Of a stretch of 64,000 bases of DNA, positions 4,701-61,947 are shown in pieces. The notes below the pieces were generated by a model. The model was not told the origin of the DNA. It worked only from the letters and a program-made list of their open reading frames with translations, and did not search any database. The position numbers and the translations under genes were made by a program. This DNA comes from Eledone cirrhosa (taxonomy: Eukaryota), in NCBI GenBank assembly GCA_964016885.1, contig OZ024741.1, forward strand, positions 261,702,001-261,766,000. Direction: 5' to 3'. How positions within the stretch are numbered: the first letter of the stretch is position 1; every line of letters begins with the position of its first letter.

Positions 4701-5544
4701 CATTATTAAACAATGTTTAATTTCTCATATTATATATCTATGTCCCATTCATGAATATTGATATTTATATTTTTATTATTCATTTCATATAAATTGTTAA
4801 CTCAACTTAATATGACATGACGTAAAGTTTTCATTATCTCCCCCTCTCTCTATATATTATTTCTCTCTCTTGAGTCTTTCTATCTGTCTGATGATTTGAT
4901 ATCTCTCTGTTGCTTTCCTCTGTTTTTCTTATTTCTTCCTTTTTTCTTTCTTTCCTCCTGTCTTTATTTATCTCTCCCTTTTTTCTCTCCACGCATTTCT
5001 CTCTCTCCGATATTTCTCCACGTTTTTTCTTTTTTCTTTTTTCTTTTTTCTTTTTTCTTTTTTCTTTTTTCTTTTTTCTTTTTTCTTTCTTCTTTTTTCT
5101 TTTTTCTTTTTTTCTTTTTCTTTTTTCTTTTTTCTTTTTTCTTTTTTCTTTTTTCTTTTTTCTTTTTTCTCTCTCTTCTTTTTTCTCTCTCTCCGTTTTT
5201 TTTCTTTCTCTCCGTCCTTTTCTAATTGTCCTTAACACTAAGACTTATTAAAATAATAGAAACAATTCACTATCCAGATGGCCTCCAAAAATAATGGTCG
5301 CATTTTAAAAGGGTACGTCAAAGCTTATTTGTAAAACTGTTATATATTGTATTTTGTCTGATAAAGGCATACCATAATTTAATTTGGTATCCCTGAAATA
5401 TGTATAATGAAATAAATATGGTTTTATAAATATAGTTTCCATTTATTAATATCGTATATCAACTCCAAATACTTGTCGTGTGCTTTATATCAGTTATAAA
5501 AATATTTACTTGTTGTATCCCAACAATTTAAATAGAACTTTTGC
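1716..5544 (+). mobile_element. 5'-truncated Penelope-like element with about 1 kb inverted pLTR
   Basis: Arm 1716-2705 is the reverse complement of about 4465-5456, including the (AAAAAG)n tract. Centre 2760-3440 encodes a decayed linker, CNC motif and GIY-YIG (VYNC..NYVGST..RFNNH..CDLC). Flanked by (TA)n. Confidence 0.9.
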
Positions 5545-5616
5545 ATATATATATATATATATATATATATATATATATATATATATATATATATATATAT
5601 ATATATATATATATAT

Positions 5617-6507
5617 ACGATATTAACAAATGGAAACTATATTTATAAAACCATATTTATTTCATTATACATATTTCAAGGACACCAAGTTAAAATATGG
5701 TGTGCTTTCATCAGATAAAATATAATATAGAGAAAGAGAAAGATAGAGAAGGAGAGAGAGAGAAAAAGAGAGAGAGAGATAGAGAAAGAGCAGAACAACA
5801 GAGAGAGAAAGATGGAGAGAGAGAGGAGAGACAGAGAAAAGGGGAGAGAATGAAAAACTCTAAGTCATATCTTGTTGAGTTAACTTAACAATTGAAATGA
5901 AATGAATAAATAAAATTAGAAATGTTAATAATCATGAATGGAATATACATATATAATAGGAGAAATTTAACCATTGTTTAAATATGATTAGATGTTTAGT
6001 TAATCATTTAAAATATTGAGATCAATATATTAAAAATTGGGATCTATATATTAAGAAATCCATATATTATTAAAGATCTATATATTATATAGCACGGATC
6101 TGGTCTTTCTCTATCTCTCTCTCTTTTTTTCTCTCTCTCTCCTTCTCTATCTTTCTCTTTCTCTGTAACCCAACGGCTTATTTTAAAAATAAAAATATCC
6201 AATACTAATAATATAATTAAAGCTACACCTCCACTATCCGGGAGCTTCCAACAGCAATGGTTGCATTCTTTAAGGGTATGTCAATATTTATTTATAAAAC
6301 TGATCTATATTATATTTTATCTGATGAAAGCACACCATAATTTAAGTAGGTGTCCTTGAAATATGTATAATGAAATAAATATGGTTTTATAAATATAGTT
6401 TCCATTTGTTAATATCGTATTTTTACTCCAAATATTTGTTGAGTGCTTTATATCAGTTATAAAAATATTTGCTTGTTGTTTCCCAACAATTTAAATAGAA
6501 CCTTTAC
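5617..6507 (+). mobile_element. ORF-less PLE derivative made of inverted pLTR segments, related to the 1716-5544 family
   Basis: 5617-5725 is an inverted copy of 6308-6418. The 3' end resembles 5280-5544. Bounded by (TA)n. Confidence 0.8.
6314..6376 (+). ncRNA. Type I hammerhead ribozyme motif, canonical core
   Basis: ATTTTAT-CTGATGA-stem II-GAAA-TATGTA-TA-ATGAAAT. The homologue at 5351-5413 has CTGATAA (C3/A8 mismatch). Confidence 0.7.
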
Positions 6508-7112
6508 ATATATATATATATATATATATATATATATATATATATATATATATAAGAAAGTAGAATAGCTTTCACCGTATTTTTTACTAAAGGAATTTTA
6601 GCCTGATAATGGGGTTTAGACCCTCAGATAAATGGAAAAAGATGAATATTGACGTACATGTTTCAAAACATACTTACTTGATCTATATATATATATATAT
6701 ATATAATATTAAATTCAAATATTAATAAAATAGATGTTCTTGTGATCAATTAAATTCTATTATATATATTTCAGTGGTACGTGAATCAGGTTCAGCAGTA
6801 CGTCCTCATCAGATAAAATAAAATGATACATGATTCACGTACCTGATTCACGAACATGATTCATGAACCTGATTCACGTACCTCTGAAATATGTATACTA
6901 AAATTTGATTGATCACAAGAACATCTAATTTATTAATATTTGAATTTAATATTATATTAATAACTCTGGAAAATATGTACTGTAGAGTGCTTCCAATCTA
7001 CTGTAAAACTCATTCTTTGATGTACTCATTGAATCTTGTTTAACTCTTTAATATATATTGCTCCCAATTGGTTGAGCGTTTTTCTATACAATAGATTGCA
7101 TATTCAATAAAT

Positions 7113-59417: not shown

Positions 59418-60392
59418 TATGATCTATACGCGGATAATTTACGTCTTGATGTGGTAGCTAAGTATATGTTATGTTTATACCATTACTTATTTGCATAGGT
59501 AAGTATATATTACCTGTATGTTTCGTGAAGGTGCGTATACTTTCTAGTACGTATATTTGATTGTATATGTTATGGCGTATATTTTATATATACTGGTACA
59601 TATGCTTTTGGTTTTGTGTATACATGAGTTTTGCGTCTGTGTGAGTATGCGGGTTCGTACGTATGATGGGTGTGTGTATATGTGTACTTCGTGTTTTGGT
59701 TGACGTACGTCTCCGAACATTTGTGTATTTACATGTAGGTATGTGTGTGCATTCGTTATATACGTATTTATTTATTTATATACGTTTAGATAATTATTTG
59801 TATACACGCACACACACATACATATTTATATGTACGTGTTTTTGTATACCTATGGCGAGTGTTTTGCGTATGCGTGTTTTGCGTATGCTTGTATACCTAT
59901 GGCGAGTGTTTTGCGTATGCTTGTGTTTTGCGTATGTATTTGGATGCGTGTATGTATTTATTTAATTTCTATTACCTCTGTATTTTATTTACTTTATTCT
60001 TAACTCTGAAGCGGAGAATCATTCGGTTTCCTAGTTAGAATTTTAGTCTACGACTTCAGTTATACCATTTACGTGGTTTTGTCTTTGCGTGCAATTGTTC
60101 TCCATGCTCCACATATGACGTGTTATCTTCGTTTTCTCCGTTCATTGCCAGAGAACGTCTCTATGAACCACCTAAGAGAATATCAGTCTACGACTTCTTT
60201 TATACCATAAACGTGGTTTTCTCTTTGCGTGTAATTGTTTTTCACCGCTCCAATTAATGACGTATTATATTCGTTTTTTCCCCGTTCTTTGCCAGGGAAC
60301 GTTTCCACGAACCAAAGTATCGTCTTCCTGTCTTCCTCCGGTTGCAACGTTTTTTGAAATATCCACTTCTGCGTTTACAGATTGACTTTGTT

Positions 60393-60443
60393 AGTTTCAG
60401 AAGATCCCGTTAAGGGTGAAAGCAGCGATTCTTTGCTTAAACT
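60393..60443 (+). ncRNA. Variant hammerhead motif (U4A); copies at 57085-57135, 43041-43091, about 43255 and on the minus strand at about 42376-42426 and 56851-56901
   Basis: AGTTT-CAGAAGA-T-CCCgttaaGGG-T-GAAA-GCA..TGC-TT-AAACT. Confidence 0.6.
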
Positions 60444-61477
60444 TTAATCTGTTATTTTAATAAATATATATATATATATATATATATACTTGGCGTGGCA
60501 ATAAAATCTTTAGAATAACACTTTAAATGAAAATGCATGAATGCAATAACATCTTTACAGTCTTATGCAAAGCATTTAACTCTGTCTGGAACCATTTCTT
60601 CGACAATTTTCGAAACCAGCACAACGATTCATCTACCACCTCTTCTAATCAAGCGAAAACACATTTTCAAAGATGTTGCTTTAAAAATTTGAACACCCAG
60701 CAATTGCACAAATTTAAGTCGGGACTATAGGGTGATTGTTTGATTATTGCCACTTATCCTCTAGAAAATTTTTTTTTGTGGATTGAGCAGTTCGATGCAT
60801 GTATTATAAACTCACAAAAGGGACAGCAAAATATTATGCATGGCCTGTGACAAAATACAGCATTCATACAGAATATTACACGTGTACAACAAAGTTCAAA
60901 TTCCAACTAATATTAACTACATTTACTGCTATATATGGCACACACACTATTATTGTAAAGACTTTATTGCCACACCAAGTATATATATATATATATATAA
61001 TAATAATTTCGTTTATTGGCCACAAGGGCTGAATAATAATAACCTGGTGGTTATCATAATAATTGTTTCTACTTTTGGCACAAGGCCAGCAATTATCCCA
61101 GTGCATTACTGGTATTTTATTTTATCGACCCAGTAAGGATGAAAAGGAAAGTTAACCTTGGCGAGATTTGAACTCAGACCATAAAGGGGCGTAACTCTAT
61201 GCTGCAAAGTATGATGTCCGACCCTCTACCAATACTGCCAATCCACTGCTTTTGGTGGTTATCATAATAATTGTTTCTACTTTTGGCACAAGGCCAGCAA
61301 ATACCCAATGCATTACTGGTACTATATTCTATCGACCCCGGAAGGACGAAGTCATCAGATAGGATAAAAAAAAAGTTGATCATTTTCCCACTCACTCGAT
61401 GTTCTAATTAAGCTAGTATCCTTAAGATAACAATATATATATATATATATATATATATATATATATATATATATATA

Positions 61478-61947
61478 TGAAAGACGTAAAATAAGAAAAT
61501 TTAGAAAAAGATTAAAAATTAACTTACTTACTAAAATTTTCACTCCAACTAATTAGTTTCTGTAATGGGATAAAGATAGTTACGTAATATAACCATCGAG
61601 AATTCATTACGTCATCAGGGAGTCTTTCCGACTAGCCTCAGTGTCACGTGATTGATTCTTTAGAATCTGCCATTTGACCAGAGACAGCGAACTTTTTCAG
61701 TGCATGGAATCCAGTCCCCGCTAGCTGTTCCATCCACCGAATTATTATTATTTTTATATGAGTCCCCAGTGTCCGCGCATTGCCTGGAGACTTAGCTGAG
61801 AATAGACTCCCTGATGACGTAATGAATTCTCGATGGTTATATTACGTAAATATCTTTATCCCATTACAGAAACTAATTAGTTGGAGTGAAAATATTAGTA
61901 AGTTAATTTTTAATTTTTTTTTAAATTTTCTTATTTTACGTCTTTCA
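61478..61947. mobile_element. 470 bp ORF-less hairpin element whose about 150 bp arms each contain a hammerhead
   Basis: 61478-61628 is inverted relative to 61803-61947; (TA)n on the left and TA on the right. Confidence 0.85.
61806..61887 (+). ncRNA. Type I hammerhead, canonical core; mirror copy on the minus strand at 61542-61623
   Basis: ACTCC-CTGATGA-C-GTAATG..CATTAC-A-GAAA-CTAATTAG-TT-GGAGT. Confidence 0.8.

Follow-up and report, generated by a model that had tools for sequence, protein, structure and literature searches.

Family-wide variant hammerhead cores in Penelope-like elements of Eledone cirrhosa

Penelope-like elements (PLEs) are retrotransposons whose pseudo-long terminal repeats (pLTRs) can carry hammerhead ribozymes. 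Here we describe hammerhead motifs in 64,000 nucleotides (nt) of Eledone cirrhosa DNA (assembly GCA_964016885.1, contig OZ024741.1, positions 261,702,001 to 261,766,000, forward strand), referred to below as the window, which is densely filled with retrotransposon pieces and belongs to a 3.0-Gb, AT-rich and microsatellite-rich assembly. Several PLE families depart from the textbook core (CUGANGA, then GAAA), and these departures (A or C for U4, C for A13, U3-A8 for C3-G8) are fixed at family level across thousands of genomic copies and are not private mutations.

Hammerhead motifs and elements in the window

All eleven motifs proposed in a preliminary description of the window are present and parse as type I (a three-way junction with stems I-III in order), although several positions and strands needed correction. 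Plus-strand cores begin, at C3 or U3, at 6321, 11093, 44198, 53111, 61811, 60398, 26708, 23261 and 19376, the coordinates first given lying 3-7 nt 5′ of them. The seven cores described as canonical are all there, but those placed at 11590 and 54561 belong to minus-strand motifs (cores at 11693 and 54661, with 77-79 nt between the two boxes); the variant cores CAGAAGA, CCGAAGA, UUGAAAA and UUGAAAA with GCAA occur as described, at 60398, 26708, 23261 and 19376, respectively. The textbook core, or its U3-A8 form, is thus found in the seven canonical motifs and at 23261, and is lacking at 60398 (A4), 26708 (C4), 19376 (C13) and in a CCGTCGA family found elsewhere in the genome. Motifs and associated frames are as follows, variant cores first (ORF, open reading frame; RT, reverse transcriptase; EN, endonuclease).

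60377-60452 (+): U4A motif, 3′ pLTR of a Hydra-type PLE; core 60398-60404, GAAA 60418-60421, 5-bp helix III; stem I with a proximal part (60393-60397/60439-60443) plus a 9-bp distal part; predicted cut after 60438
57283-59417 (+): Hydra-type PLE ORF (RWR, DKT, RT, C-terminal EN) between U4A motifs 57090 and 60398; one frameshift near 58150
57085-57135 (+): U4A motif, upstream pLTR copy
56896 (-), 43046 (+), 43260 (+), 43249 (-), 43037 (-), 42421 (-): further U4A motif copies
26704-26750 (+): U4C motif; core 26708, GAAA 26735, palindrome CAATTG
23907 (-): inverted copy of the U4C motif; Hydra-type ORF fragments at 24390-25146
19373-19409 (+): U3-A8 plus A13C motif; core 19376, GCAA 19397, palindrome CCGG, stem I of three A-U pairs
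16202 (-): A13C pLTR motif, inverted copy
17980-19056 (-): Neptune-type RT fragment, A13C family
23257-23358 (+): U3-A8 motif; core 23261, long stem II, GAAA 75 nt downstream at 23343, CGGTCG
22470 (-): U3-A8 motif, partial inverted copy
6313-6377 (+): canonical motif, core 6321; copies at 5714 (-) and, with CTGATAA, at 5358 (+) and 1810 (-)
11086-11150 (+): canonical motif, core 11093, after the Hydra-type ORF 7137-9316; inverted copy at 6812 (-)
11588-11702 (-): canonical motif, core 11693, long stem II, CAATTG
54559-54668 (-): canonical motif, core 54661, long stem II, CAATTG; EN fragment 55447-55890 (-) upstream
44193-44233 (+): canonical motif, core 44198; its repeat lacks ORFs and occurs in tandem at other loci (retrozyme-like)
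53107-53149 (+): canonical motif, core 53111; inverted copy of the pLTR motif at 49670 (-)
61806-61887 (+): canonical motif, core 61811, CTAATTAG; inverted copy at 61618 (-)

The CTGATAA at 5358, where the range first described begins, is a local variant in a cluster with 32 of 35 copies canonical. An additional U3-A8 hammerhead-like motif absent from the preliminary description lies at 15823-15860 (+) (core 15827, TTGATAA ... GAAA CTGG TA).

Eight families (60398, 26708, 19376, 23261, 6321, 11093, 53111 and 54661) show the features of PLE pLTRs: a motif in a repeat flanking an ORF with RT and C-terminal GIY-YIG EN, tandem or inverted copies, and (TA)n neighbours. Among these neighbouring frames, 49950-52376 (-), which is followed by the motif at 49670 (-), gives weak RVT_1 and GIY-YIG matches. 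The 44198, 61811 and 11693 families fall outside this set, so that the roughly 11 distinct pLTR families first described are linked to ORFs for the most part, the exceptions including 44198, which is retrozyme-like, and 61811, for which an ORF link was sought and none found. The 44198 family forms tandem repeats of about 490-540 bp with one canonical core per unit (loci L286, L241, L013 and L139; window part 43980-44500); being ORF-less and tandem, these repeats resemble retrozymes and are not an established pLTR, making the family a retrozyme candidate. Non-LTR (RVT_1) retrotransposon fragments at 31189-36021 and 46266-46748 are unrelated to the hammerhead motifs.

The ORFs linked to variant cores were assigned to PLE clades by motif. 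RWR and DKT motifs of Hydra-clade type are common to 57283-59417, 7137-9316 and other window frames; the Hydra-clade combination (an RWK-like motif, DKT in place of DKG, a C-terminal EN) is found, with RWR and DKT, in 57283-59417 and at locus L277, where a 645-amino-acid (aa) frame is flanked by two U4A motifs. A U4C element (locus L276) has a 607-aa frame ending in EN. The A13C family protein carries GLKF, DKG and a CxxxxCxxC linker, and two of its elements (L284 and L076) have 784-aa RT-EN frames with a Neptune-type linker, the L284 frame matching the Neptune-clade pattern (GxKF, DKG, CX2-5CxxC between RT and EN) by motif only; all three lengths are stop to stop. In a FastTree tree of 36 ORF pieces, the 20-nt U4C subfamilies group together (0.999) and U4A stands apart. 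One U4C-labelled piece falls elsewhere, so the tree supports no count of origins.

Fixation and constraint of the variant cores

Each family was searched genome-wide with the core written as N, and letter shares were taken from the first 100 matches by position, which include inverted pairs from single insertions. Reversed-pattern controls gave no match for the U4A, A13C, 26705-subfamily (core 26708), U4C-clade and 23256-family (core 23261) patterns.

The U4A family has 16,662 matches, with A4 in 100 and CAGAAGA in 94 of the 100 listed; in an older subfamily of 53, most copies likewise have A4. In contigs from four public runs, which bear three organism labels between them (13,404, 40, 591 and 1 placed; the small sets may be contamination), no other letter reached 3% at this position. 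The hammerhead fold of the U4A motif lies within 0.8 kcal/mol of the minimum-energy fold, in a comparison that leaves aside the motifs at 53111, 23261 and 19376. CTGAAGA copies in this lineage (43037, L211, L216) are inversion junctions and not canonical revertants: inversions inside the near-palindromic TTCAGAA (43037-43046; L211, L216) convert the U4A box to canonical CTGAAGA in single copies. The 5′ boundary of the motif is often where short U4A copies begin (as at most of the 20 older-subfamily loci; loose ends at 60393). The stretch 60383-60400 (+), like loci L211-L230, resembles a 3′ splice site ending in CAG, and also an initiator element; either could constrain A4. Use of TTTCAG as a splice acceptor was rejected, with 0 of 65 copies spliced and no fitting upstream exon end seen by eye.

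For A13C, 98 of 100 listed copies carry GCAA (6,245 matches); the lineage together with its sister yields 25,364 matches, the first 100 comprising 59 GAAA, 40 GCAA and one GGAA. The sister has GAAA and different yet still paired stems, so C13 is most simply the derived state; stem I has only three A-U pairs in the A13C family, versus CCTT/AAGG in many sister copies. Both the U4A and A13C families are young, with median distances to the column majority of 1.7% and 0% over the motif. Many A13C copies form back-to-back inverted pairs at a constant 105-bp offset (e.g. G000:C1 21363533 and 21363638), which suggests either that template switching favours a point some 40 nt 5′ of the core or that a short palindrome is mobile as a single element. 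A13C also creates a TGCGCA palindrome (19393-19400) overlapping the end of stem II, the sequence that forms helix III in another family.

For U4C, the 26705 subfamily (113 matches) has C4 in 95 of 100 listed copies, none fully canonical; the wider clade (8,535 matches) has C4 in 93 and U4 in 7; and an 81-nt family has C4 in 4/4 sampled copies. Three further U4C-majority families share the CAATTG palindrome with unrelated stems II of about 82, 94 and 62 nt: C4 occurs in 73 of 100 listed copies of the first (620 matches) and 93 of 100 of the second (378 matches), while the third (878 matches) is mostly CCGTCGA, i.e. U4C+A6U (65 of 100 listed; U6 in 75), with CCGA[GA]GA (12) and canonical CTGA[GA]GA (5) sub-lineages. 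Stems I and II, GAAA and the palindrome are all retained in this CCGTCGA family. C4-G5 forms a CpG and decays towards U4; even so, lineages whose stems are unrelated still have C4. Older U4C subfamilies (L190, L204, L207-L209) carry a second core-like box about 55 nt upstream of the core (CTGTGGA, CTGTAGA or CTGAAGA after TGTT), perhaps a relic of a longer ancestral hammerhead. The U3-A8 family at 23261 has 1,013 matches, with TTGAAAA in 90 of the 100 listed.

Across eight subfamilies (67 copies) of the 20-nt U4C clade, none of the 7 unanchored core columns differs, against 33 of 43 columns in the flanks (Fisher p=2e-4). Variation is seen at N7 and N17, which are free, but not at G5, G8 or G12. 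In the same clade, 96.1% of stem cells are paired (at most 43% in slid controls), with five double-sided pair changes versus 0.8 after shuffling (0/500). Compensatory changes also separate A13C from its sister and occur in the ~62-nt family. In U4A, old and young subfamilies (7 copies) differ in loops and tail and not in stems, so no covariation is seen there. The preliminary description had named canonical family consensuses, or stems lacking covariation, as the outcomes that would tell against it; the opposite was found, with variants family-wide and stems covarying.

Motif enrichment was assessed with a descriptor that tolerates a single mismatch anywhere in the core, applied to the window and to 100 stretches of 10 kb (1 Mb; 2 of them flanking the window) chosen regardless of content, with the same DNA reversed as the control; allowing two mismatches raised the reversed control to a high level. 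The 1-Mb sample gave 105 exact-core and 53 one-mismatch motifs at scores of at least 15 (reversed, 2 and 13), the window 26 motifs at scores of at least 12 (reversed, 3). Motifs cluster at two or more loci in 35 cases (reversed, 0), 25 of them canonical or U3-A8. Taking these clusters together with the pattern searches, whole families depart from the textbook letters at positions 4, 6 and 13 and at the 3-8 pair, and none was seen to do so at G5, A9, G12 or A14; the single G5T majority (2/3 copies) traces to one locus. As predicted beforehand, a strict CUGANGA/GAAA descriptor and Rfam both overlook the variants: scaling family counts by the listed shares, fixed-core descriptors miss about 36,000 exact-pattern motifs in this genome, and PLE families reported as "lacking" hammerheads may deserve relaxed searches.

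In variant as in canonical families, genomic copies run through the predicted cut site and end 29-50 nt after it, which indicates that integrated copies are made from uncut RNA. Copy 5′ ends fall within 2 nt of the cut site in 3/78 U4A, 0/25 A13C, 2/37 U4C and 2/58 U3-A8 sister copies, and in 0-2 of 9-43 copies in each of five canonical families, with no peak in any; the test thus cannot separate variant from canonical cores. Apparent 5′-end peaks upstream of two canonical families proved to be subfamily indels. The public runs, being contigs, have depth and ends uninformative on cleavage.

Readings of the variant cores

Family-wide fixation, linkage to Hydra- and Neptune-type ORFs, stem covariation, core constraint and copies spanning the cut site are established directly. 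The explanation we prefer, at a probability of roughly one half, is that core changes, fixed while the stems are kept, leave ribozymes graded from slow to almost inactive, a loss tolerated since the element is copied from uncut RNA. Successful PLE lineages would fix U4C, U4A, A13C or U4C+A6U while keeping the stems and remaining core letters. U3-A8 motifs, with a known compensatory pair, should cleave; cleavage by U4C and U4A would be slow, by dimers paired at the palindromic helix III or, for U4A, by a monomer with its long stem I, in either case perhaps with help from the element protein; A13C and U4C+A6U would be close to dead. In transcripts the motif would lie 29-50 nt short of the 3′ end of the copy, with cleavage at most occasional. 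Lineages could therefore weaken the core at letters that position the chemistry rather than carry it out, producing the graded series. Selection likely still favours the fold and some, but little, cleavage in most lineages, because RNA that has been cut cannot serve as a template across the motif.

Several points weigh against this explanation. The core-column test treats related subfamilies as independent and relies on an ungapped alignment with indel shifts in its flanks, one shifted copy having been dropped; the covariation set comprises 17 hand-picked copies, including one U3-A8 sister, from a search anchored on stem II. U4A and A13C are one lineage each. CUGA mutants showed no rescue except by the 3-8 swap (PMC9901934). 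As to the motifs themselves, none of 120 Rfam matches at E<=1 was to a hammerhead, even for the canonical motifs (the matches being microRNA and small nucleolar RNA models driven by microsatellites), and folding z-scores of the 11 motifs are unremarkable (-0.25 to -1.97), so that support comes from motif enrichment and covariation rather than stability. A descriptor with a single core mismatch under-counts more eroded families. Finally, the CCGUCGA majority, keeping stems, GAAA and palindrome despite two changes in the first box, also fits a non-catalytic role.

Such a role, in which the variants do not cleave and the fold, GAAA box and palindrome are retained as a signal that binds protein, promotes dimerisation or positions RT next to where reverse transcription begins, seems to us rather unlikely, although this alternative, already raised in the preliminary description, gains weight from the U4C+A6U family, the weak A13C stem I and insertion assays in which catalytic mutants insert normally in vitro (PMC11167929). 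It would also suit the stepwise 5, 12 and 65 listed copies of the ~62-nt family, with stem I covarying, copies that span the cut site, and the success of Naiad PLEs without canonical hammerheads (PMC8557442). It sits poorly with the predominance of canonical or U3-A8 cores among the clusters, with N7 and N17 varying as in a catalytic hammerhead while G5, G8 and G12 do not, and with canonical sub-lineages inside U4C families. A stepwise conversion of the ribozyme into a non-catalytic RNA signal recognised by RT (CUGAGGA to CCGAGGA to CCGUCGA; GAAA to GCAA) is a tentative proposal of similar standing; if true, lineages lose self-cleavage yet keep the fold under selection, amplifying to tens of thousands of copies.

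Full activity of the variants, with tertiary contacts or the element protein making up for the core changes and a core truly wider than the textbook one, appears improbable. Offsets of this kind have been proposed (PMC3088659), the Anolis PLE ribozyme needs protein (PMC11167929), and the U4A motif, with its two-part stem I and 5-bp helix III, is predicted to fold as a monomer and varies between subfamilies in loops and tail, not stems; against this, CUGA changes give low activity in mutational data (PMC9901934) and each of the four substitutions would call for a separate rescue; the missing copy-end peak is uninformative, canonical families lacking it too. Still harder to credit are variants as passengers, whether chance master-copy changes or substrate-only partners cut in trans by canonical CAATTG siblings. 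In a double hammerhead the core of one molecule cuts the site of the other, canonical siblings of variant families do exist, and the U4A and A13C families are young and of single lineage; U4C, however, has lasted through several families that diverged deeply and still have an otherwise intact enzyme half, and A4 and C13 each survive in at least two subfamilies.

Relation to known hammerheads and PLEs

A series of slow or dead self-cutters among abundant PLE families, as the variant cores likely represent, would offer a natural test of whether such elements need to cut their own RNA, with canonical and variant sister lineages that both amplified serving as matched natural pairs. Why PLEs carry hammerheads is an open question (PMC8557442, PMC11167929). 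Their ribozymes are weak, protein-assisted and dispensable for insertion in vitro (PMC4209133, PMC11167929).

Part of the core variation is already in print. U3-A8 covariation, including the exact UUGAAAA box, is known from Schistosoma mansoni PLE hammerheads (PMC4209133, supplement, Fig. S3 text), and U3-A8, U4C (in a viroid) and A6C are rare natural variants of reduced activity, U4C lowering activity in vitro yet permitting viroid infectivity (PMC3088659). Half of the novelty claimed in the preliminary description, U3-A8 and U4C as such, is accordingly already known, and the expanded core space proposed there implies a catalysis that goes beyond the family-wide fixation observed. The literature searched, largely open-access, gave no account of U4C, U4A, A13C or A6U fixed in a PLE family, and lineage-wide U4C, U4A, A13C and U4C+A6U cores are likely new here. 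The variants in PMC3088659 are single viroid or phage examples, unlike the thousands of genomic copies described here, and its accessible text does not name U4A, A13C or U4C+A6U among them; other CUGA mutants have low activity, and catalytic roles are stated for G8 and G12 (PMC9901934).

The families most resemble the minimal, dimeric PLE hammerheads (PMC4209133) in pLTR location, an extra nucleotide after A9, a palindromic helix III, many families per genome and U3-A8; unlike the present families, none of the representatives in the accessible S3 text is changed at U4, A6 or A13, letters that the descriptor used there fixed. Their proteins resemble Hydra-clade PLEs (PMC8557442) for U4A and U4C, with RWR/RWK-like and DKT-type motifs and a C-terminal EN, and Neptune-clade PLEs (same source) for A13C, with GLKF, DKG and the CxxxxCxxC linker. 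Canonical hammerheads have been called universal in the Hydra clade (PMC8557442), and File S2 of that paper has a CTGANGA box in every Hydra hammerhead, unlike the U4A and U4C families. A likeness to animal non-LTR retrozymes (bioRxiv 10.64898/2026.07.22.740005) is limited to the 44198 family, whose tandem units measure about 0.5 kb, lack ORFs and each carry a single canonical type I hammerhead; the variant-core families have ORFs. The Anolis Poseidon element PAc (PMC11167929) likewise has its hammerhead just upstream of the internal RT start, with genomic copies that span the cut site; PAc, however, has a canonical C3-G8 core studied through engineered mutants, whereas the mutants described here are natural ones that amplified.

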